Assembly: GCA_002506365.1 (NCBI GenBank)
Contig: DAXK01000048.1
Location: 18,627-82,626 of the forward strand
DNA length: 64,000 nucleotides
Reading direction: 5' to 3'
Origin: an archaeon UBA583
Lineage (GTDB): Archaea > Nanobdellota > Nanobdellia > Woesearchaeales > UBA583
Shown: in pieces, positions 2,027 to 53,783 of the stretch
How the letters are laid out: each line of letters opens with the position of its first letter
Numbering within the stretch: position 1 is the stretch's first letter
Notes under the pieces: generated by a model
Seen by the model: the letters and a program-made list of their open reading frames with translations, nothing else
Told to the model about the DNA's origin: nothing
The model's database searches: none
Program-made: the position numbers and the translations under genes

Positions 2027-2647
2027 TTATTGGTTAATAATTTTTAAAAATCTTTCAGAAACTTTATCCCAATTAATGATTGAAAAAAATTCATCAATAT
2101 GTGCTGGTCTCTTATTTTGATAATCAATATAATAAGCATGTTCCCAAACATCAATAACTAAAATAGGTTCCTCCTTATTTACACATACATCCATCATAAA
2201 ATTATCTTGATTAGCAGTATTATAAATAACTAATTTCCCATTTGAATCAACTGCAAGCCAAGTCCAACCTGAACCAAAAACTGCTGCTGCTTTTTGTGAA
2301 AACTCATCCTTAAATTTATCAAAACTTCCAAAAGAATCAACAATTGCCTTATGCATCTCAGGCAACTCTGAAGGTCCTGAACACTTAGGTGCCATAGACT
2401 CCCAATAAAATTGGTGATTCCAAAATCCTCCTCCCATATTTCTAATTGCTGGCTTATCAGCAACATTTGCAAAAATTTCTCTAAAATCTTCTGACTCAAT
2501 TTGAGCAGCTTCAAGTGCCCCATTAAACTTATCACAATAAGTTTGGTGGTGTTTGTCGTGGTGAACCTTTAACGTTTCCTCTGAAATGTGAGGTGCTAAA
2601 GCATCATAACTATAAGGTAAATCTTTTAAATTAAATTTAGTAGCCAT
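2027..2647 (-). CDS. sod: Fe/Mn superoxide dismutase
   Basis: LPYSYDALAPHISEETLKVHHDKHH at the N-terminus and DVWEHAYYIDYQNKRP at the C-terminus are canonical Fe/Mn-SOD signatures. Confidence 0.95.
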   Translation of the reverse strand: MATKFNLKDLPYSYDALAPHISEETLKVHHDKHHQTYCDKFNGALEAAQIESEDFREIFANVADKPAIRNMGGGFWNHQFYWESMAPKCSGPSELPEMHKAIVDSFGSFDKFKDEFSQKAAAVFGSGWTWLAVDSNGKLVIYNTANQDNFMMDVCVNKEEPILVIDVWEHAYYIDYQNKRPAHIDEFFSIINWDKVSERFLKIINQ

Positions 2648-14110: not shown

Positions 14111-15085
14111 ATGGATACAAATGATAAATTATATAGTTCTAAATTCAAAACTGCTGATATAAAATTGGGTTATGGATGTAATGATAAATGTGTTCATTGC
14201 GTTGTTGAAAAACTTCGAGATATCGCAATACAAAATAAACATCTTGATTTAAAAACTGATGAATATCTAAAAGAAATTGATAAAGTTATCTCGGACGGAA
14301 TTAAAAGAATAGTTGTAACGGGTGGAGAACCTACAATAAGAAAAGATTTTCCTATAATTATTGATTATATTAACAGTTTTGGAATTGAAATATTTCTACA
14401 AACAAATGGTAGATTTTTATCTAACTCAAACTTAATTGATAAAATAAAAAATAAAATTAATACATATATTATCGCACTACACGGACCAAATGAAACAATT
14501 CACGACATTGTAACACAAAGCTCAAATTCATTTAATCAAACTGTTCAAGGAATTAAAAATGTTGTTAAAATCGGTGGGAATGTTTGCGGGAAAACAGTAA
14601 TCTCAAAATTAAATTATAAAACATTATTACAAACATGTAAATTATATAACAAACTTGGAGTTAAAGAAATTTATATTGCATACCCTCATTCTTCTGGCGA
14701 AATTGATTATTTAAAAAAAATAGCTCCAACCTATACTCAAATAAAACCATATATAGAACAATGTTTAACTTGGGCAATTGAAAATAATATTAATTTAAAA
14801 TTAGAAAGTATTCTTCCATGTAATTTAGATAAAGAATTTCCAATTAAATATTACTATGATTTCACAGAATTTCTAGCTCAAAAAAAATATAAAATGCTTG
14901 ATGAAAATTATGGGTCTTGGGAAGAATTTACTAAAATGGACAAAAAAAAAGATTTTTCAAAATGTCAAAAATGTGTATTCAACAATTTCTGTAATGGTAT
15001 TTGGCACGAATATACAAACCTTTATGGATTTGAACAAATAAGACCTATAACTAAAATTCACGACAAATCAAATCTTAAATTCTAA
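14111..15085 (+). CDS. radical SAM enzyme with a C-terminal CxxCx5C auxiliary-cluster motif (possible HxsC-like maturase)
   Basis: GYGCNDKCVHCVV gives the CxxxCxxC motif, VVTGGEPTIRKD the SAM-binding GGE motif, and the C-terminus has CQKCVFNNFCNG. Confidence 0.8.
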   Translation: MDTNDKLYSSKFKTADIKLGYGCNDKCVHCVVEKLRDIAIQNKHLDLKTDEYLKEIDKVISDGIKRIVVTGGEPTIRKDFPIIIDYINSFGIEIFLQTNGRFLSNSNLIDKIKNKINTYIIALHGPNETIHDIVTQSSNSFNQTVQGIKNVVKIGGNVCGKTVISKLNYKTLLQTCKLYNKLGVKEIYIAYPHSSGEIDYLKKIAPTYTQIKPYIEQCLTWAIENNINLKLESILPCNLDKEFPIKYYYDFTEFLAQKKYKMLDENYGSWEEFTKMDKKKDFSKCQKCVFNNFCNGIWHEYTNLYGFEQIRPITKIHDKSNLKF

Positions 15086-15130
15086 AATAAAATAACAAAA
15101 ATATATAAATAAAATAATTATAATTTTTTT

Positions 15131-15439
15131 ATGAAAAAGGAACTTCCTAAAATTAAAAAATCGTTAAAATCATTTATTATCGAGGAAGATGCAAAAGTTA
15201 TGGATAAAACTGCAACTAAAGTAGCATTAGCTGTAACATTTGCAAGTTTAACATTTCTAGACTCAGTAGATGATGTAAACGCAAAAGGACATAGTAATCA
15301 CTATCACAAAAATAACTTATTAACTGAAGATTTTAAAACTGTTCAAGATCAAAGTGGAGAAGATTTTGAAGTAACTGAAGTTACACACACAAACGGATAC
15401 ACACACCAAAATAGTAAGCGTAGTTGGTATAAATTATAA
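15131..15439 (+). CDS. candidate secreted precursor peptide, His-rich C-terminal region
   Basis: 102 aa. A basic N-terminus plus hydrophobic helix TATKVALAVTFASLTFL and a VNA|K signal-peptidase-like site precede the repeated motifs GHSNHYHKNN and THTNGYTHQNS. Lies 45 bp after the radical SAM gene. Confidence 0.45.
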   Translation: MKKELPKIKKSLKSFIIEEDAKVMDKTATKVALAVTFASLTFLDSVDDVNAKGHSNHYHKNNLLTEDFKTVQDQSGEDFEVTEVTHTNGYTHQNSKRSWYKL

Positions 15440-15456
15440 AATTTATATCTATTTTT

Positions 15457-16635
15457 TTATTTTTTAAATTTATAATACAAATTAACTTTTTGATTTAAAG
15501 TATAATAAAATTCAAAACTTAAAGTAACTAATTCCTTATCATCATATTTATCTAACTTAATTTCTAACTCTGAAAAAATTTTATCATTTTCAAATTTATT
15601 TAATTCTAAAGATATATCAATTCTTTTAGCAATAATTTTATTATTTTTAATCTTAAAATCTAATAAAACTCCACGCAAACTTTCACTAAAACTATAATTA
15701 ATTATCTTATTATATTTTGATTTAAACTCATCTGGTATATCTGACACAAAATCATCAATTTCATATATTTTAATTTTTTCCTTTTGATGATAAACTTTAA
15801 TTTTAAAATTATTTTCTTCATCAAAATCAATTCCAATCCCCCAAATTTTATCACTAAGTTCAGGTTTTATATTTAAAATATCTACACATACTTTTAATTC
15901 ATTTTCACTATATTCATCACAACTAAAATATAATGTTTTACGAATACTTTTATCTTTCATCTCAGCAAAACTAATCCCAACTTTAGAACTTAATTGAAGA
16001 CATTTTTCAATTTCTAAAAACTTCTTACTTCCAAAAATACTTTGTAAATAATTATCAAATACTTTTGAATTTTTCATTTTATACAAATAACAAACAAATC
16101 TATCATTATTACTTTCTTGACTTTTACCTAAATAAGAATCAACAAAAATAAAAGATGACTTAACTAAAAAATCATTATTTTTAATTAACTCTAATAATTC
16201 AAAAGACATATCTTTAACTTTACAACTTTTAAAATTTTCAATTTTAGAAATCTCCTTACTTGAATTAAACTCAAAATAATCTTCTCCTAAAAACTCAGTT
16301 TCCCCAAATTTTTTTTTATAATTTAAACATTCAAAATCACAATTTAAAATATCAACAAACTTCCAATACTTTAAACACATATGAGATTTTAAAAAAAAAG
16401 AATAAATAATACTTTCTGGAAAATTTTTAAATATTATTTTTTTAATAATTTTTTTATCAATTAAACTATATAAATATTTTTTTTGAATTTCAAAAAATTT
16501 AGAAATAGGCACACCTAAATTATACTCTTTAAAATCAAACTCAAATTCTCCATTACATAAATTAGAATTATAAATGATATCAAAACTTAACTGATTATCT
16601 AACTTAAACTCTAATTTAAATGTATTATTATTCAT
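15457..16635 (-). CDS. hypothetical protein (392 aa), translationally overlapped with the HxsD-like gene
   Basis: 8-nt overlap with the upstream gene. The C-terminal half shows a repeating strand-strand-helix pattern (GISFAEM..TLYFS, GIGIDFDEENNFKIKVYH, GVLLDFKIKNNKIIAKRIDISL, LVTLSFEFYYTLNQKVNLYYKF). No family recognised. Confidence 0.55.
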   Translation of the reverse strand: MNNNTFKLEFKLDNQLSFDIIYNSNLCNGEFEFDFKEYNLGVPISKFFEIQKKYLYSLIDKKIIKKIIFKNFPESIIYSFFLKSHMCLKYWKFVDILNCDFECLNYKKKFGETEFLGEDYFEFNSSKEISKIENFKSCKVKDMSFELLELIKNNDFLVKSSFIFVDSYLGKSQESNNDRFVCYLYKMKNSKVFDNYLQSIFGSKKFLEIEKCLQLSSKVGISFAEMKDKSIRKTLYFSCDEYSENELKVCVDILNIKPELSDKIWGIGIDFDEENNFKIKVYHQKEKIKIYEIDDFVSDIPDEFKSKYNKIINYSFSESLRGVLLDFKIKNNKIIAKRIDISLELNKFENDKIFSELEIKLDKYDDKELVTLSFEFYYTLNQKVNLYYKFKK

Positions 16636-16963
16636 TGTTTGAATTTGAAACTCCTTGACTTAAAATTGCTTTTTCTAAAATTAATTGTCTAATCTCTGAT
16701 GTATTTTTCATTTGATCTAAATAAGAACTAGACTCAATTAATTCATCAAAAAATCCATAAACTGCATCATTTAAATTATTCTCTTTATTATCTTCATCTT
16801 TAAACTTTAAAGATACAATCCAATTTTTATCATCACAATCAATTAAAAAATAAAACTTATCTAACAATACATAAGTAGTTTGAACAACAACTTGTTTAGA
16901 ATAAATTTCTTTATTAATTTTAATTATAGCTTCATTATCAACAATTTCAAAATTTGACTTCAT
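16628..16963 (-). CDS. HxsD-like small protein (radical-SAM partner/chaperone-like)
   Basis: The track start is GTG at 17002, and ATG at 16963 (MKSNFEIV...) is more plausible. The layout (A.I.INKEIYSKQVV..TTYVL...YF.I......W.V.L......, then FFDELIESSSYLDQMKNTSEIRQLILEKA) resembles the HxsD family as I recall it. Confidence 0.5.
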   Translation of the reverse strand: MKSNFEIVDNEAIIKINKEIYSKQVVVQTTYVLLDKFYFLIDCDDKNWIVSLKFKDEDNKENNLNDAVYGFFDELIESSSYLDQMKNTSEIRQLILEKAILSQGVSNSNNE

Positions 16964-16984
16964 AATAATTACTAGCAACAAAAC

Positions 16985-16992
16985 TTTATAAA
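16985..16992. promoter_or_regulatory. palindromic TATA box shared by two divergent, apparently leaderless genes
   Basis: The centre of TTTATAAA lies 25.5 nt from ATG 17014 (+) and 25.5 nt from ATG 16963 (-), matching the archaeal TATA-to-TSS spacing of about 26. Confidence 0.45.
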
Positions 16993-17013
16993 CTTTAACC
17001 ACTAAAATTTCTT

Positions 17014-18444
17014 ATGGAAAATACATTTTGTAAAAAAGAAGGAATCGATTATATTCAAAACTTTTATAGATTCACTCTTTTTGACAAAAAAAAAATGATG
17101 TATCTAATTACTCTTGATGATGGAAACTTTTTATTTATTAATCAATCAATTTTTAAACAAATAAAACGAGGAAAAATAATTGATGAAAAAACTTACAATG
17201 ATTTATTATTAAAAGGAATTTTAATTACTCCTCAAAACATTTCAAAAGTAATTTCACAAACAAAAAATAAATACTCTTTTCTAACTCATGGAACTTCACT
17301 TCACATTGTAATTCCGACATTTAGATGTAATCAAGGTTGTAGTTACTGTTTTGCTTCACCAAAAGCAATTGATGATATTGAAAATGGGAATGACCTAGAT
17401 GAAAAAACTTCTAAAAAAATCATTGAATTTATTTTAAATTCTCCAAGTAAATCAATAACTATAGAATTTACTGGTGGTGAAGCTATGGCTAATTATGAAC
17501 AAATTAAAGTTATGGCATTACATGCAAAACAACTAAACAAAACAAAACAAAAAAAATTAACTTTAACAATAATTACAAACTTAACTATGGTTAATGATGA
17601 AATGATTGATTGGTTAATTGATCACGACATATCTATCTGCACATCATTAGATGGTCCAGAACACGTCCACGATAAAAATAGATATATTCAAATAAAATCA
17701 GGAAAACAAATTGGAACACATAAAACAGTTACAACTTGGATTAACAAAATTAATGAAAAATATAAACAACGTGGATTAAATGAGCAAATTGGTTCTCTTC
17801 CAACAATTACAAAATACTCTCTTCCATACTATAAAGAAATTTTAGATGAACACTTTAAATATAATTTAGATACAGTTGATATTAGAACATTAACATCTGT
17901 TGGTAAAGCAAATGAAGAAGACGATATAACATACTCAACAAAAGAATTTACACAATTTTATGTTAACTGTATTAACTATATTGAAGAACTAGAAAAAAAA
18001 TCAGGTAAAAAATATTTTGAAAGATTAAAAGAATTATACCACACTAAAATTATAAAAAATATGCCTGGTTACCATGCAGACTTTGAAAGTCCTTGTGGTG
18101 CTACAACTGGACAAATAACTTATCATTCTGATGGAAAGATTTATACTTGTCATGAAGGACTAGGACGGGAAGAATTTCAAGTTGGAGATGTTTTCAAAGA
18201 TAAATGGGAAGATTTATTTCAAAAACCTCAAACACAAAAAGCAATATTAAATTCAATGATTGAACAGAATGTTAAATGTGATAGGTGCGCATATAAACCA
18301 TATTGTGGGACTTGTATGGTGGAAAATTTTTATCATTTTGATAAATTTAATTTTTATCCAACAAAAACTCAAAGACACCATATCACAATTATGCAAAGTA
18401 ATGATATATTTGGAAAAATTTACAATAAATTAAATTTAAAATAA
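17014..18444 (+). CDS. radical SAM/SPASM-domain maturase (HxsB-like/anSME-like)
   Basis: PTFRCNQGCSYCF gives the CxxxCxxC motif and FTGGEAM the GGE motif. The C-terminus has CGATTGQITYHSDGKIYTC...CDRCAYKPYCGTC, a SPASM motif. The N-terminal YRFTLFD...YLITLDDGNFLFINQSIF segment is typical of HxsB-type proteins. Confidence 0.85.
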   Translation: MENTFCKKEGIDYIQNFYRFTLFDKKKMMYLITLDDGNFLFINQSIFKQIKRGKIIDEKTYNDLLLKGILITPQNISKVISQTKNKYSFLTHGTSLHIVIPTFRCNQGCSYCFASPKAIDDIENGNDLDEKTSKKIIEFILNSPSKSITIEFTGGEAMANYEQIKVMALHAKQLNKTKQKKLTLTIITNLTMVNDEMIDWLIDHDISICTSLDGPEHVHDKNRYIQIKSGKQIGTHKTVTTWINKINEKYKQRGLNEQIGSLPTITKYSLPYYKEILDEHFKYNLDTVDIRTLTSVGKANEEDDITYSTKEFTQFYVNCINYIEELEKKSGKKYFERLKELYHTKIIKNMPGYHADFESPCGATTGQITYHSDGKIYTCHEGLGREEFQVGDVFKDKWEDLFQKPQTQKAILNSMIEQNVKCDRCAYKPYCGTCMVENFYHFDKFNFYPTKTQRHHITIMQSNDIFGKIYNKLNLK

Positions 18445-18495
18445 TTATTATTTAATAATAAATTAAAATTATATAATTAATATAACTTTTAAAAA

Positions 18496-19734
18496 CTATA
18501 ATGGTTTCATTAAACCAATTTTTTCCATATTTTTCCACCTAATATTTTCCATAGTATGATAAAACTTAGATGAGGGGAACTGTTTAAATCCTAATCCTAA
18601 ACCTTGAGTATCCTTCCCAGTTAAAACAAAATCAATATGTGCTTTAATTGGTGTAGTAGGTTTTTTTAATCTATTTCCATCTTGAAATTTATTTAATTTA
18701 TTAACACTTGAACTAAAAGGTAAATGTCCAAAATTATTTTTAGCTCCAGCATAAATAACTAAATCTACTAATTCTTGTTTAATTAATGGTTTACACATTA
18801 CTGAACTATATTTTTCATCAATAAAATCTCCAATTAATTCATCAGCCCCTCCAGTTACAGGTCTTGCTGAAATTTTATCTAATGTATCAACTGTATCAAC
18901 TAACGCTGCTCCAATCATTGCTGAATAAGCTGCCTTTGGACCTTGTGGCAAAAATAATCTCCCAACTGTTGAAATCATCGCATCATCACAACAACCAAAC
19001 TCATTCTCTCTTTTAATATATAAACAAAATTGATTATCAATATTTCGTCTATAATCACTTTCCAAACTATGAAATTTTTCTAAAACTCCATATTTATATA
19101 ATAATTCTTCTAAATCTTCACCAACTCCCTTTGATGATAATTTTGAAAGTTTTAATCCTTCCAAATCTCTAACTGCATCATAATTTGCAACATGACAATT
19201 CCCACCACCAATATTAATTTTTTTCCCATTAATGTCTCTATATAATTTGGAAACTCTTTGTCTATTTTCAAACTTATCAACTTGAGAAAAAATATAAGCT
19301 CCTTTCAAAAAAGCTTCCTCATCATAAATTACTGCATCTCTAAAATTATTTAATTCAAATGGAGTATCTAAAGTAGGTAAATTAATCATTCTAAGATATT
19401 CACCATGTTTAGAACCTAATAACGAACTTCTTTTATCTTTTTTACCTGTAACAATATCACAAACTTCCCCTAATAATCCCTTAGTTCCTTCAATATGGGA
19501 ACTTACATATTCTCTAACTGACCGCCCTTTATCTTCAAGAGGGTGTAATAAATCTAGAATTGTTGTTTCTGGGTATGCATTACCTCCATGTATATGTCCA
19601 TTATTTATTCTTCCAAGTTGAGATAAATAACTAATTGGTTCTATAATTCTAGCATAATTATTTGTGTCTAAATTAGACTGATTAAACCTTGTCACAGGAA
19701 TAACTTTATTTGTTGGGATAACTCCTTCAATCAT
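18496..19734 (-). CDS. conserved-looking soluble protein of unknown function (about 412 aa)
   Basis: The track start is GTG 19752, with an ATG at 19734. Low-complexity-free sequence with Gly-rich motifs (NGHIHGGNAYPE, NIGGGNCHVANYD, RPVTGGADELIGDF). I could not place it in a family. Confidence 0.5.
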   Translation of the reverse strand: MIEGVIPTNKVIPVTRFNQSNLDTNNYARIIEPISYLSQLGRINNGHIHGGNAYPETTILDLLHPLEDKGRSVREYVSSHIEGTKGLLGEVCDIVTGKKDKRSSLLGSKHGEYLRMINLPTLDTPFELNNFRDAVIYDEEAFLKGAYIFSQVDKFENRQRVSKLYRDINGKKINIGGGNCHVANYDAVRDLEGLKLSKLSSKGVGEDLEELLYKYGVLEKFHSLESDYRRNIDNQFCLYIKRENEFGCCDDAMISTVGRLFLPQGPKAAYSAMIGAALVDTVDTLDKISARPVTGGADELIGDFIDEKYSSVMCKPLIKQELVDLVIYAGAKNNFGHLPFSSSVNKLNKFQDGNRLKKPTTPIKAHIDFVLTGKDTQGLGLGFKQFPSSKFYHTMENIRWKNMEKIGLMKPL

Positions 19735-19924
19735 TTTAATTTGTTCAAACACACAATTGATTTGTTGTTTATACTCACTTATGGTTTTTAATACTTATAA
19801 GTCTTTCGCAAGTATTACTACTAATAGTTACAACACAAAATTTGTAAAATAGAATAATTTTCAATTTAAATTTATTTAATTAGAATTTGAAATAAGAAAA
19901 AATAATTGCTTATTTTTTAAAATA

Positions 19925-20985: not shown

Positions 20986-21876
20986 ATGGGACATAATTAT
21001 TTAGAAAATATTGAAAAAATTAAAGAACAAAATATTAAAATTTTACAAGATGTAAATTCATCTGGTTGTTTAAAAATAGCCTCAATTTTTGAATTAATGA
21101 ATATTGCTGATCAAGATTCATTAAAAGCTTTATACAAATGTATTAGAGAGGATAAATGTGAATTAGTAAGACATGAAGCAGTATTTGCTCTAGGAGAAAC
21201 AGCTCCTGAAGAAAATACTACCAAATTTTTAAAAGAAATTCTTGAATTTGATGATAGTTTAGTTGTAAAACATGAATGTTTAATGTCTCTTGGAACAATT
21301 GGAAATAAAGATGATATTGATTTTATCAAACAATTTACTAAAAGTCCATTATTTGAAATTAAATGTTCAGCACTTTCAGCAATTGATAGAATTAATCAAA
21401 CAATTGACTATGAAAATGAAGTTTCAAAAAATATTGATAAATATATTCAAATTTTACACGATAAAAAAACACATTCACAAAATGCAAGAATTCAAATTTT
21501 ATTTCAATTAATGTTGATTCAAACACCAAAAGCATTACAAGCAATTCATAAATGTTTAAAAGAAGATATTTGTAGAGTTGTAAGACACGAAGCAGGATTT
21601 GTATTAGGAGAAATTGGAACTGATACTGCTGTTGAAATGATGGAAGATTCATTATTATCTGAATCTACAAATATTACAATCCATGAAACATTATTTGCTT
21701 TAGGAACATCTGGAAATAAATTAGCTTTACCAATAATTCAAAGATACTTAGATCATCCAGATTATGTAGTATCTGAATCTGCAGTAATTGCTAAAGAAAG
21801 AATTGAAGTTTTAAAAACTCCCTACTCTGGAGCAAGACATTTTGGAACTGAACATCAACATTCAGCCACAAAATAA
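20986..21876 (+). CDS. deoxyhypusine hydroxylase-like HEAT-repeat di-iron protein
   Basis: 296 aa with four His-Glu motifs in a 2+2 symmetric layout: VRHEAVFALGE (H63), VKHECLMSLGTIG (H96), VRHEAGFVLGEIG (H201), TIHETLFALGTSG (H233). The intra-pair spacing of 33 and 32 residues compares with 33 in human DOHH as I recall it. Confidence 0.7.
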   Translation: MGHNYLENIEKIKEQNIKILQDVNSSGCLKIASIFELMNIADQDSLKALYKCIREDKCELVRHEAVFALGETAPEENTTKFLKEILEFDDSLVVKHECLMSLGTIGNKDDIDFIKQFTKSPLFEIKCSALSAIDRINQTIDYENEVSKNIDKYIQILHDKKTHSQNARIQILFQLMLIQTPKALQAIHKCLKEDICRVVRHEAGFVLGEIGTDTAVEMMEDSLLSESTNITIHETLFALGTSGNKLALPIIQRYLDHPDYVVSESAVIAKERIEVLKTPYSGARHFGTEHQHSATK

Positions 21877-21889
21877 CTTTTGCTAAAAC

Positions 21890-21912
21890 TTTTTGAACAT
21901 TTTGTTCAAAAA
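21890..21912 (+). terminator. hairpin after the DOHH-like gene
   Basis: 9-bp inverted repeat TTTTTGAAC/GTTCAAAAA with a 5-nt loop, 14 nt after the stop codon. GTTTTTAT lies downstream. Confidence 0.4.
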
Positions 21913-22961: not shown

Positions 22962-24026
22962 CTATCTAATAGTCTTTAATTTAGATGGATCAAACTTTGG
23001 CTTTTTAGCTAAATAATCATCTAAAATAAACTTTTTAATCTCTTCTGAATCAGTAAAAAACTTATACTTCTTTAAACCTTTCATAGCTTCAATTCTTCTC
23101 TCAGTATCCTCTTCATTATAAATATCAGTCTTAGATAAATACAATACAACAGGTTTATCATCTGATGAAACTTTCTTCAATAAAGCTAATTGTTGTTCAA
23201 CTCTATATCCACAAGACTCAGTAAAATCAATAACAAAAATCATTGATTGACAATAATCTCTTAATACAATCTCAGCTCTCTCTTCAATTCCATTATTTTT
23301 ATCTCTACCTAATAAACCAGGAGTATCAATCATTTGAATTGCCTTTTGTTCCTTATAATATAAATAAGAAAACATTAAACCCTTAGTTGTAAAAGGATAA
23401 TTTTGAATTTCAACATTTGAACCAGTAACTTTCTTCATTAAAGTAGACTTTCCAACATTTGGAAATCCAGCAATAGTTACAGTATATAAATCTTCAAAAG
23501 TTGGTAACTTATTCATAAACATTCTCGCATCATCTAAAGTTTTAAATGCTTTTTTAGACTTTGAAAATAAAGAATTAATCTTTCCTAAATGTTTCTTCAT
23601 TAAAAATCCACTAGTTTCTTGACTCTTTACCTTCTTTAACTTAAACTCTGTTTTTTGAGTAAACTCATCAGAACCATCACAAATCCATTTTAAATCTGCT
23701 AAAGCTTCCTTAATATCTCTAACTGGAGTTTCTGAAGTATTAATTAAATCAACATAAACCTTATTTACTTTCATAAAATTTGGAAATTGTTTCATTAACT
23801 TTCTAACATCATTATTAATTTTAGTATTTAGATGTCTAACTTTTTGTAACTCTAAATCCTTTCTTTTATTTAAATTATTCTCTTCTGCTGTTTTTCTTTG
23901 AAAAGATGCTACTCTTTTAAATCTATTATCAACAACTAACTTCTCTTTTGCTGCAAAATCTTGCATTGACTTCATTGCTCTGTCAATATAAAAATTTTCT
24001 TTTTCTATTTTTGGTATTTTAAACAT
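22962..24026 (-). CDS. Nog1-type (archaeal/eukaryotic) GTP-binding protein
   Basis: IAGFPNVGKSTLMKK (G1), DTPGLL (G3), LSKTD (G4), and an N-terminal NOG1-like helical region. Confidence 0.8.
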   Translation of the reverse strand: MFKIPKIEKENFYIDRAMKSMQDFAAKEKLVVDNRFKRVASFQRKTAEENNLNKRKDLELQKVRHLNTKINNDVRKLMKQFPNFMKVNKVYVDLINTSETPVRDIKEALADLKWICDGSDEFTQKTEFKLKKVKSQETSGFLMKKHLGKINSLFSKSKKAFKTLDDARMFMNKLPTFEDLYTVTIAGFPNVGKSTLMKKVTGSNVEIQNYPFTTKGLMFSYLYYKEQKAIQMIDTPGLLGRDKNNGIEERAEIVLRDYCQSMIFVIDFTESCGYRVEQQLALLKKVSSDDKPVVLYLSKTDIYNEEDTERRIEAMKGLKKYKFFTDSEEIKKFILDDYLAKKPKFDPSKLKTIR

Positions 24027-25884: not shown

Positions 25885-26226
25885 ATGTTTTGGAAAGAAA
25901 AAAGAATAATTATCGGATTAATCGAGAGTATAACTCTAGAAAATGGAGTCACATATAAAGCAAAAATCGATACAGGGGCAGATTCTAGTTCAATTGACCA
26001 AAACTTATTAGAAAAATTAGGTGAGAAAAAAATTTTATCTCACAAAATTGTAAAATCTGCTTTGGGTAGAACAAAAAGACCAACTGTTAGACTAGAAGTA
26101 GAATTCCAAGGTAAAAAATTTTCTGAAAAGTTTTCAGTCGCTGACAGAAGTCATCTAAGATATAAAGTTTTAGTTGGAAAAGATATTTTAAAAAAAGAAG
26201 GATTTTTAATTGATCCTACAAAATAA
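25885..26226 (+). CDS. retropepsin-like protease of the RimK-associated family (DUF785/Zn_protease)
   Basis: YKAKIDTGADSSSID (Asp-Thr-Gly active-site motif) and SVADRSHLRYKVLVGKDIL are typical of this family. Confidence 0.75.
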   Translation: MFWKEKRIIIGLIESITLENGVTYKAKIDTGADSSSIDQNLLEKLGEKKILSHKIVKSALGRTKRPTVRLEVEFQGKKFSEKFSVADRSHLRYKVLVGKDILKKEGFLIDPTK

Positions 26227-26439
26227 TTAATATTATATTATGATATATTTAATATATTATTATTATTTTATTTCTATTTATTTTAATTCATAACTCAATT
26301 TAATTTTAATATTTATACTATTTAACGATTAATATTATTTTTTAATCGTATATAAAAATTATTAATTCTTAATTATTTGATTGTTTATATCTCCAACCCA
26401 ATGTTTATAAACAACCAATTCTTTAAAATATTTAGATAC

Positions 26440-27516
26440 ATGGGTTTAAAAATCGGAATTATTAGTATGGGGAGTAAATCTTCTCGTATGATTTTAGAAG
26501 AGGCGGATAACTTTTTTGATGAAGCAGATCACATCGACATTAGAAAAATTGAAGTTAAAATTGATGATAAAACAACTGTTTTATACGACGGAGAACCACT
26601 AAAAGATTATGATTGTTTATATATGAGAGGAAGTTTTAGATATTCATCATTATTATATGCAATTTCAGAACATTTTAAAGATAAATGTTATGTTCCACTA
26701 GAAGCAAATTCTCACGTAATTGCTCATGACAAATTTAAAACTCACTTAAAATTATCACAAGTAAGTTCAATTAAAATGCCTGCAACTTATTTTACAGCTA
26801 AAATTACTGAAACTAAATCTTTTTTAAAAACATTAAATTATCCAATTATTTTAAAATTTCCAAGTGGAACTCACGGGAAAGGTGTAATTTTTGCTGAATC
26901 TTACTCTTCAGCAGCTTCAATGGTTGATGCTTTAGATGTATTTAGTCAACCTGTTTTAATTCAAGATTATATTCATATTAATTCAGACATTAGAGTAATT
27001 GTAGCAGGAGATAAAATTATTGGTGCAATGCGTAGATTTGCTCAAAAAGGTGAAGTTCGTGCTAATTCTCATCAAGGTGGGGACGCTGAACCATATTTAG
27101 TAACTCCTGAAGTTAAAAGAATGTCAATTGATGCTGCTAAAAAAATTAAAGCTGATGTTTGCGCAATTGATTTAATTGAATCTGATTACGGTCCACAAAT
27201 TTTAGAAGTAAATTCAAGTCCAGGATTACAAAAAATTACTGAAACAACTAAAAAAAATATTGCAGGTGAAATTGCTCACTTTTTATTTGAAGAAACTTTA
27301 AGAAGAAAAGATCTGAAAAATAAATCTGATTCAAAAGACTTAAACAAAGATATGGGAATTGAGGAAATTGGTTCAAGAGATTTAGTTACAGAATTAAAAA
27401 TGAATGCAGGAAGAATTATTTTACCTGAATTTGCATCAAAACAATCTGAATTCTGGCCAGGTGAAGAAGTAGTAGTTAAAACTAGTAAAGGTAAAATTGA
27501 AATAACTAAAGGTTAA
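26440..27516 (+). CDS. rimK: RimK-family ATP-grasp ligase with an about 80-aa C-terminal extension
   Basis: The track start is TTG 26377, and ATG 26440 gives MGLKIGIIS. ATP-grasp motifs are PIILKFPSGTHGKGV, VLIQDYI, DIRVIVAGDKIIGAMRR, ANSHQGG and CAIDLIE...LEVNSSPG. Confidence 0.8.
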   Translation: MGLKIGIISMGSKSSRMILEEADNFFDEADHIDIRKIEVKIDDKTTVLYDGEPLKDYDCLYMRGSFRYSSLLYAISEHFKDKCYVPLEANSHVIAHDKFKTHLKLSQVSSIKMPATYFTAKITETKSFLKTLNYPIILKFPSGTHGKGVIFAESYSSAASMVDALDVFSQPVLIQDYIHINSDIRVIVAGDKIIGAMRRFAQKGEVRANSHQGGDAEPYLVTPEVKRMSIDAAKKIKADVCAIDLIESDYGPQILEVNSSPGLQKITETTKKNIAGEIAHFLFEETLRRKDLKNKSDSKDLNKDMGIEEIGSRDLVTELKMNAGRIILPEFASKQSEFWPGEEVVVKTSKGKIEITKG

Positions 27517-28337: not shown

Positions 28338-28730
28338 CTATTCATCCTTATAGACACCTTTAAGTGTCCCAGAAACTCTTTTCACATCAATTTTACAAGG
28401 ATTATTATTTCCTAAAAATAAAACTAAACTTAAAATTCCAATTAATTTTTCTGATGATTTAGTTGAACATTTTAAAATAATTTCTTGTTTATCAAAATCA
28501 AACTTATCTCGTAAAACCCAAACTCCAGCTTTCCCCATTTCAACAGTCCCCATATAAGAAATAATTTCTTCAATTAAATTTTCTGAAATAGTCTTAAAAT
28601 CTAATTTATTCTTAGAACTTATAACTGCCCTAATAAATCTCTTTTTTTGTCTTAAAGTTGGTTGTAACGGTTTTAACTTTGTATCTTCAATTTGTGTTTT
28701 TGTTGTTTTATTTGATGTTTTATTAGCCAT
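28338..28730 (-). CDS. rnp2: RNase P protein component 2 (Pop5/Rpp14 family)
   Basis: LQPTLRQKKRFIRAVISS matches the LPPTLRxxxRY-hydrophobic start of archaeal Pop5. Size 130 aa. Confidence 0.6.
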   Translation of the reverse strand: MANKTSNKTTKTQIEDTKLKPLQPTLRQKKRFIRAVISSKNKLDFKTISENLIEEIISYMGTVEMGKAGVWVLRDKFDFDKQEIILKCSTKSSEKLIGILSLVLFLGNNNPCKIDVKRVSGTLKGVYKDE

Positions 28731-53108: not shown

Positions 53109-53783
53109 ATGACAGAAAAAAAAGTAAACTTAATGGAATTCGATTCCAACCCAAATATTGGATTATATATGTTCGCTTGTGATAAATTTGCAATTATTGG
53201 TATTGATGCTAATAAAGAAAAAATGGCAGCAATTGAGGATGTATTAAAAGTTCCAGTATATAAAACAACAGTTTTATCAACTGAATTAATTGGTATTTTT
53301 GTAGCAGGAAACGAAGATTTTCTAGTTGTTCCTGATATGTATGATTACGAAATGAAAGTTTTTAAAGAAATTGCAGAAAAACACGATGTTAAATTATTAG
53401 TTAAAGACTACAAATTAAACACACTAGGAAATAATTTATGTTTTGGAAATAAAACAATTTTAATTAATCACCAATATCCAAAAGGATTTGGATTAGAATT
53501 AGAAAAAGAAACAGGATACAAAGTAATTGAATTAAAAGTTCCTGAATACGAAAACGCTGGTGCAATCGCAACTTTCAAAAACGGTAAATATTTTATGGCT
53601 CAACAAGTTACTGAAGAAAACGTTAAAGAAATTGTTGATCAAATTGGTGGAATTGGAACAATTAACTCTGGTTCAAATTTTATTTCATCAGGGATTGTTG
53701 GAAACTCATTTGGAGTTTTAATTGGTTCACTATCAACAACAGTAGAAATTCAAAATGTTGTTGAAGGATTAGATTATTTATAA
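53109..53783 (+). CDS. eif6: translation initiation factor 6 (aIF6)
   Basis: 224 aa. FDSNPNIGLYMFACDKFAIIG and the five-fold pseudo-repeat layout are typical of e/aIF6. Confidence 0.85.
   Translation: MTEKKVNLMEFDSNPNIGLYMFACDKFAIIGIDANKEKMAAIEDVLKVPVYKTTVLSTELIGIFVAGNEDFLVVPDMYDYEMKVFKEIAEKHDVKLLVKDYKLNTLGNNLCFGNKTILINHQYPKGFGLELEKETGYKVIELKVPEYENAGAIATFKNGKYFMAQQVTEENVKEIVDQIGGIGTINSGSNFISSGIVGNSFGVLIGSLSTTVEIQNVVEGLDYL

Follow-up and report, generated by a model that had tools for sequence, protein, structure and literature searches.

The locus described here raises the question of whether an archaeon can encode deoxyhypusine hydroxylase (DOHH, EC 1.14.99.29), the di-iron enzyme that finishes the formation of hypusine on translation factor 5A in eukaryotes. 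According to papers from 2016, 2018, 2020 and 2021, no archaeal homologue or orthologue of DOHH is known, and archaea possess deoxyhypusine synthase (DHS) but lack a DOHH homologue, so that hypusine in archaea is not accounted for (PMC5178350, PMC6105217, PMC7773846, PMC8153317). An earlier note, made from the letters of a 64,000-nucleotide stretch of DNA (hereafter the window, meaning this whole stretch), had read one of its genes as encoding a DOHH-like protein in an archaeon, on the premise that no archaeal DOHH had been clearly identified. The premise held in the light of the 2016-2021 papers, and the literature that we searched, including that on Asgard archaea, Heimdall archaea and DPANN, contained no paper describing an archaeal DOHH. 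The reading itself is supported by sequence, structure model and phylogeny, whereas the enzymatic activity is inferred.

The window and its DOHH-like gene

The window has a G+C content of 25% and a dense arrangement of genes of prokaryotic type. It encodes a NOG1-type GTPase (22962-24026), Rpp14/Pop5 (28338-28730) and aIF6 (53109-53783), kinds of genes that occur in archaea and eukaryotes but not in bacteria, as well as the housekeeping proteins gyrase A, topoisomerase I, ThrRS, MetRS and glutamate dehydrogenase. Close relatives of the DOHH-like ORF were found in metagenome-assembled genomes (MAGs) labelled Nanoarchaeota, Nanoarchaeia, Woesearchaeota or Pacearchaeota. Given the archaeal genes of the window and the presence of these relatives in DPANN MAGs, we assign the host to the DPANN archaea, and among these to the Woese-/Pacearchaeota type, and the archaeal context claimed in the earlier note thus held. 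A eukaryotic or contaminant origin of the window was considered and rejected, since its genes are packed densely in the manner of prokaryotes and the DPANN proteins form a monophyletic clade.

The DOHH-like ORF (Table 1) starts with ATG. The strand opposite to it contains many stops and is closed in that frame, and small ORFs that overlap the gene in other frames are without support. The gene appears to be monocistronic, with an AT-rich gap of 375 bp upstream; on its downstream side, a Tag DNA glycosylase gene follows after 74 bp, which contain a short inverted repeat. This AT-rich repeat, TTGAACA-TTT-TGTTCAA, lies after the stop codon at 21893-21909, with a run of A and a run of T behind it, and may represent a terminator-like element.

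The translated protein contains exactly four HE dipeptides, namely H63 (VRHEA), H96 (VKHEC), H201 (VRHEA) and H233 (IHET), which are spaced by 33 residues in the first pair (H63 to H96) and by 32 in the second (H201 to H233). The length of 296 amino acids, the four His-Glu motifs, their positions and their spacings, all of which the earlier note had given, held in every detail.

Table 1. Positions of the annotated features in the window.
Feature	Position	Strand	Remarks
HxsC-like gene	14111-15085	+	Hxs cluster
HxsD	16628-17002	-	Hxs cluster
HxsB	17014-18444	+	Hxs cluster
DOHH-like CDS	20986..21876	+	296 aa and stop TAA at 21874-21876; 76 close homologues; AF2 model; Foldseek
N-terminal four-hairpin HEAT lobe	21064..21393	+	about residues 27-136; aligns with human N-lobe
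His-Glu motif 1, H63-E64	21172..21177	+	corresponds to human H56-E57
G70	21193..21195	+	corresponds to human Gly 7 residues past H56
His-Glu motif 2, H96-E97	21271..21276	+	corresponds to human H89-E90
Inter-lobe connector	21394..21477	+	about residues 137-164; helices 142-148 and 150-157 (AF2 model)
C-terminal four-hairpin HEAT lobe	21478..21810	+	about residues 165-275; AF2 model and alignments to human
His-Glu motif 3, H201-E202	21586..21591	+	corresponds to human H207-E208
G208	21607..21609	+	corresponds to human G214
His-Glu motif 4, H233-E234	21682..21687	+	corresponds to human H240-E241
DPANN-specific C-terminal tail KTPYSGARHF	21814..21843	+	family consensus NPYSGxxHF; no function assigned

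Separation from generic HEAT repeat proteins

The family comprises 76 close homologues of 169-304 aa, mostly of 264-304 aa, some of which carry the automatic JGI annotation 'deoxyhypusine monooxygenase'. In the alignment of 41 family sequences, all four histidines and three of the four glutamates are invariant, while the remaining one, E97, is conserved in no less than 90% of the sequences. We compared the occurrence of His-Glu at its position in the repeat motif: the dipeptide is present in 98.9% of 264 repeats of the DOHH-like family and in 97.6% of the repeats of other small DOHH-like proteins, compared to 0.8% of 1,253 repeats from 92 large generic HEAT proteins. Because the four His-Glu motifs are conserved in the family and rare in generic HEAT repeats, they are not a product of chance.

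The AF2 model of the protein (pLDDT 94.1, pTM 0.91) has human DOHH (4D4Z) as its top Foldseek match, with TM scores of 0.77/0.79 over 295 columns, and this was the sole full-length structural match. Other HEAT structures did not exceed a TM of 0.45 relative to the query: query-normalised values were 0.25-0.39 for alphaRep, armadillo, CpcE and YibA, with 0.37 for the CpcE structure 5N3U, and 0.42 for Rpn2, a subunit of the 26S proteasome. CpcE/CpcF, CpeY, NblB, E. coli YibA and alphaRep have the HEAT_PBS-type repeat unit in common with the window protein but possess neither the His-Glu motifs nor the two-lobe dyad (query-normalised TM 0.29-0.39). The NCBIfam models for such proteins all remained far below their cut-offs, with 51.7 of 300 bits for NblB, 43.8 of 600 for CpeY, 26.3 of 330 for CpcE and 17.9 of 220 for CpcF.

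By sequence profile, human DOHH is the best natural match in the PDB (E-value 8.7e-32). Synthetic alphaRep proteins score level with it in PDB sequence searches, because many overlapping repeat matches add up to high scores. The sequence score alone can therefore not separate DOHH from alphaRep, and structure and motif specificity are required; where the window protein has His-Glu, alphaRep has R, Y or Q followed by A or S. In a profile-profile comparison with hhalign, the DPANN family aligned with 30 eukaryotic DOHH sequences at a probability of 100% and an E-value of 9e-43 over 263 colinear columns. One of these 30 sequences, P0166, matches human DOHH at 2.6e-74. The distinction between DOHH and generic PBS-lyase HEAT repeats, which the earlier note had put forward as a check, thus favours DOHH on the grounds of fold, NCBIfam models, profile-profile alignment and residues. 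The outcome that the note had named as a refutation, best matches to generic HEAT_PBS proteins without conserved His-Glu pairs, was not borne out.

Overall, we consider it very likely that the window gene is an archaeal member of the DOHH family. The family itself is already present in databases, without a paper on it in the literature searched; the window gene would be a new member of it.

Catalytic residues and comparison with eukaryotic DOHH

Mutagenesis and the crystal structure of human DOHH have assigned iron binding to H56, H89, E90, H207, H240 and E241, while deoxyhypusine is bound by E57, E90, E208, E241 and two glycines (PMC9117371). We mapped these residues via the human sequence taken from an alignment. 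The ten functional residues correspond to H63, E64, G70, H96, E97, H201, E202, G208, H233 and E234 of the window protein. The human glycine that matches G70 is G63 in the 4D4Z sequence and is printed as G65 in the review (PMC9117371). All ten columns are kept in 21 of 21 DPANN, 30 of 30 eukaryotic and 10 of 10 Heimdall sequences, apart from a single Heimdall E-to-K exchange in the E90 column. Both glycines are located 7 residues past the first His of their lobe. In an alignment of 66 sequences, comprising DPANN, Heimdall, eukaryotic and unassigned ones, the G70 column holds glycine throughout, and the G208 column is likewise invariant in all groups.

The overall architecture is shared as well. 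Human DOHH (4D4Z/4D50) and yeast Lia1 consist of eight HEAT hairpins in two four-repeat lobes, as does the window protein, in whose AF2 model the N-lobe shows DSSP helices at residues 27-40, 43-55, 59-70, 76-88, 92-105, 108-119 and 123-136. The four His-Glu motifs and the two glycines of eukaryotic DOHH are found at aligned positions, although the identity between eukaryotic DOHH and the DPANN proteins amounts to only about 24-25%.

Differences concern the connector, the residues flanking the His-Glu motifs and the C-terminus. The DPANN connector is shorter than the eukaryotic one, and hhalign places gaps at the eukaryotic 'SVDPAP' segment, which is invariant in the eukaryotic sequences sampled but absent from the DPANN proteins and also from those of Heimdall; the invariance of D152 and P153 is confined to the eukaryotic alignment. 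To our knowledge, the literature does not treat 'SVDPAP' as a defining trait of DOHH, and the segment is likely a eukaryote-specific elaboration rather than a criterion of the family. The flanking residues are lineage-specific: DPANN proteins have 'LGE' where eukaryotic DOHH has 'LGQ', and 'VV(K/I)HE.L..LGT.G' where it has 'MVRHEAAEALGAI'. The NPYSGxxHF tail occurs in DPANN only and is missing from the Heimdall and eukaryotic consensus sequences. Within it, Y280 and G282 are invariant and P279 is kept in at least 90% of the 41-sequence family alignment; it is also a region of lower confidence in the AF2 model.

Proposed function and pathway partners

Since the fold and the catalytic residues match those of human DOHH, we propose the eukaryotic mechanism for the window protein. 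According to this model, H63, H96 and E97 of the N-lobe and H201, H233 and E234 of the C-lobe would form a non-haem di-iron centre between the lobes, where O2 would be bound as a peroxo-diiron(III) species. E64, E202, G70 and G208 would position the aminobutyl side chain of the deoxyhypusine of aIF5A, which would have been made beforehand by a DHS encoded elsewhere in the genome, and the enzyme would hydroxylate this side chain to hypusine. We regard the assignment of the window protein as the aIF5A deoxyhypusine hydroxylase as likely; its activity, iron binding and substrate are inferred by homology.

What speaks against a hydroxylase function is that there are no biochemical data for any archaeal member, that the 'SVDPAP' segment is missing and that few genomes yielded the gene. 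Furthermore, DOHH chemistry requires O2, and many DPANN archaea are described as anaerobes. The window encodes an Fe/Mn superoxide dismutase (2027-2647, minus strand), which makes contact of the host with oxygen plausible. Its sequence also occurs in bioreactor and aquaculture metagenomes, and in a seawater metagenome only partly (few words); these habitats, together with the superoxide dismutase, might favour an exposure of the host to oxygen.

The earlier note had linked its reading to the occurrence of aIF5A and DHS in the same genome. Neither was found in the 64-kb window, and both were seen only on contigs of relatives. No protein with a GKHG loop is encoded in the 64-kb window, DS and eIF-5A domains were not detected among the window ORFs scanned, and neither DHS nor aIF5A is located in the 3.6 kb past the left end of the window. 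On a 1.09-Mb contig of a relative, DHS (NCBIfam equivalog, 391.5 bits compared to a cut-off of 380) is located 2.6 kb downstream of the DOHH-like gene. The contig of another relative carries aIF5A, with the loop SKPGKHGHAK, at a distance of 7.5 kb. A conserved linkage to either partner was not found, as each occurs within 10 kb only once in about 25 loci, which is not more than chance. The proximity of DHS and aIF5A to DOHH-like genes in relatives is a co-occurrence and not an operon. DHS was reported to be present in every archaeal genome that had then been sequenced (PMC5178350, PMC7773846).

We additionally observed a compact cluster around the DOHH-like protein P0120 on an 18-kb Logan contig with 40% G+C and no taxon assigned (L035:2857-9902). 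The order of genes is DHS, Orn/Arg decarboxylase, N-carbamoylputrescine amidase-like, agmatine deiminase, P0120 and a second IF5A-like gene; the first IF5A-like gene (loop KAGKHGGPK) is divergent and located upstream of DHS. The three genes between DHS and P0120 belong to the putrescine pathway. P0120 has an N-terminal hydrophobic segment and groups with eukaryotic DOHH at 86% bootstrap. This cluster and the half-size genes described below strengthen the view that non-eukaryotic DOHH-like proteins are part of hypusine biology.

Distribution and phylogeny

A search of 1.84 billion representative proteins with the profile of the DPANN family retrieved, beyond the family itself, Heimdall proteins, eukaryotic DOHH (including sequences of Geosiphon and Digyalum) and long HEAT proteins, the scores of the latter being sums over many repeats. 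In a second search, a combined DPANN and Heimdall profile was run against 5.8 billion proteins. Named sources above 216 bits were exclusively DPANN and Heimdall, with eukaryotic DOHH next, at 147-167 bits. Neither a Thermoproteota name nor a named source from the known hypusine-containing Crenarchaeota was among the matches of the combined-profile search. As no Crenarchaeota source was among the matches, the family does not explain the hypusine of Sulfolobus; there are apparently no crenarchaeal members, and the hypusine of Sulfolobus and other Crenarchaeota stays unexplained by a DOHH-like family. In 185,579 species genomes, 19 loci with the gene were recorded in a scan that was limited by its search patterns, and a metagenome scan for further loci added short contigs only.

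The clade nearest to the DPANN family is that of Heimdall, with a mean identity of 29% and a profile alignment at an hhalign E-value of 1.5e-54 over 256 columns. These Heimdallarchaeial proteins have 248-265 aa and exhibit the two lobes and the four His-Glu motifs of the window protein. They form a separate clade nonetheless, are shorter, lack the C-terminal tail and possess lineage-specific motifs of their own. In the literature searched, no paper on these proteins was found, and they exist as database entries only. The sister clade includes P0085-P0111, P0142 and P0261-P0297, which stem from MAGs of Heimdallarchaeota, Kariarchaeaceae and 'Asgard group'. Two Heimdall loci (L034 and L038) also contain a gene for the O2-dependent 3-hydroxyanthranilate dioxygenase, and a third (L037) lies near genes for eIF-1A and ribosomal proteins. 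Full-length proteins of the DOHH family with intact catalytic residues thus occur in at least two archaeal groups.

A phylogeny including eukaryotic DOHH, which the earlier note had suggested as a check, was run and placed the archaeal clades apart from the eukaryotic one. In the unrooted neighbour-joining tree, a bootstrap of 100% supports the monophyly of each of the three sets, DPANN, Heimdall and eukaryotic, and none is nested within another. The existence of three separate clades with such support excludes contamination and a recent transfer from a eukaryote. An ancient transfer between the lineages remains possible, since the root is unplaced. Rooting by the internal duplication, i.e., N- against C-halves, was attempted and failed, as the N/C split received 0% bootstrap. 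The N- and C-halves within one lineage share 35-37% identity, compared to 25-28% between matching halves of different lineages, and this greater likeness of the lobes within a lineage is seen in DPANN, Heimdall and eukaryotic proteins alike. It would be compatible with concerted evolution, symmetric constraints on the active site or repeated duplication, but is so far unexplained.

Alternative explanations

The plainest alternative to a DOHH is an ordinary HEAT_PBS protein with incidental His-Glu motifs, which would serve as a scaffold or be lyase-like in the manner of CpcE/NblB. This view is supported by Pfam, which reports only HEAT_2 and HEAT_PBS on the protein, by the name 'HEAT repeat domain-containing protein' that NCBI gives to its relatives, and by alphaRep sequence scores that equal those of DOHH. 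However, alphaRep structures do not superpose (query-normalised TM of at most 0.39, compared to 0.77 for DOHH), the models of NblB, CpeY, CpcE and CpcF reach merely 18-52 bits against cut-offs of 220-600, and His-Glu, which is invariant in the family, occurs in only 0.8% of generic repeats. We regard this explanation as all but excluded. More difficult to dismiss, yet still unlikely in our view, is a di-iron oxygenase with the DOHH fold that acts on another substrate, such as a different aminoalkylated protein or a free polyamine. In its favour are the absence of a conserved linkage to DHS or aIF5A, the conserved C-terminal tail and the shorter connector of the DPANN proteins, and an identity to eukaryotic DOHH of only about 25%. 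On the other hand, the equivalents of E57, E208, G63 and G214, which bind the deoxyhypusine side chain, are kept in addition to the iron ligands, eukaryotic DOHH has a single known substrate (PMC9117371), and in the one clustered example, DHS and IF5A-like genes accompany a DOHH-like gene.

A further alternative concerns the origin of the gene rather than its function. The DPANN gene might have been acquired horizontally, with Heimdall-type archaea or an early eukaryote as the donor, and not represent old heritage; in that case it would say little about an archaeal ancestry of eukaryotic DOHH. The gene was seen in two archaeal groups only, DPANN archaea are known for acquired genes, and the root of the tree is unplaced, all of which is in line with a transfer. 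This is opposed by the monophyly of each of the three clades, with 100% neighbour-joining bootstrap and no nesting, by the deep divergence inside DPANN, with identities down to about 34-41%, and by the occurrence of half-size forms in both archaeal groups. On balance, we lean slightly against an origin by transfer.

Implications for the origin of DOHH and further observations

If the window gene is read, as we prefer, as an archaeal DOHH-family gene, it is relevant to the question of whether eukaryotes inherited the final reaction of hypusine formation, a eukaryote-signature modification, from archaea. Heimdallarchaeia are usually placed closest to eukaryotes. A bolder interpretation is that DOHH predates eukaryotes and that a working archaeal enzyme survives in Heimdallarchaeia and DPANN. 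The eukaryotic set of IF5A, DHS and DOHH would then be archaeal, and some archaea would make hypusine in the 'eukaryotic' way. We put this forward with reservation, as the present data do not quite tip the balance towards it.

Complete half-size genes of 134-147 aa, which encode one four-HEAT lobe with two His-Glu motifs, were identified in both archaeal groups. Those of the DPANN-like type are P0104, P0119 and P0314 and those of the Heimdall-like type P0305 and P0315-P0317 (loci L040-L043). They are located inside contigs, their neighbours are unrelated, and a second half is not nearby. The proteins are about equally distant from the N- and C-halves of full-length proteins, with 43-44% identity for the DPANN type and 42-47% for the Heimdall type. 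An action as homodimers is conceivable, and the proteins could represent either an ancestral-like form or a product of deletion. Under the bolder interpretation, these single-lobe forms might resemble a homodimeric ancestor from before the duplication.

Several loci deserve separate mention. The DOHH-like genes of L009, L012 and L020, 40-55% identical to that of the window, are located in MAGs labelled Bdellovibrionales or Methanosarcinales, which likely reflects binning or labelling errors for DPANN contigs. In L023 (OZ242164.1, a Woesearchaeota chromosome of 1.2 Mb), L024 and L025, the best tblastn segment is partial, with about 390-425 bases, and the gene might be interrupted or more divergent there. 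P0139, P0141 and P0177, which are presumably eukaryotic, combine a DOHH domain with either DAP3 (mitochondrial ribosomal protein S29) or WD40 repeats; they could reflect genuine fusions or gene models that were merged.

Elsewhere in the window, a His-Xaa-Ser (Hxs) radical-SAM cluster extends over 14111-19752 (Table 1). Two large ORFs amid it, at 15457-16635 and 18496-19752, gave no family match. At 25885-27516, a RimB-like retropepsin-type aspartic protease adjoins a RimK ATP-grasp ligase, an arrangement that is also present in L001, L002 and L036. A relative with a DOHH-like protein of 55% identity has the RimB-like/RimK pair, NOG1 and Rpp14 in the same order.
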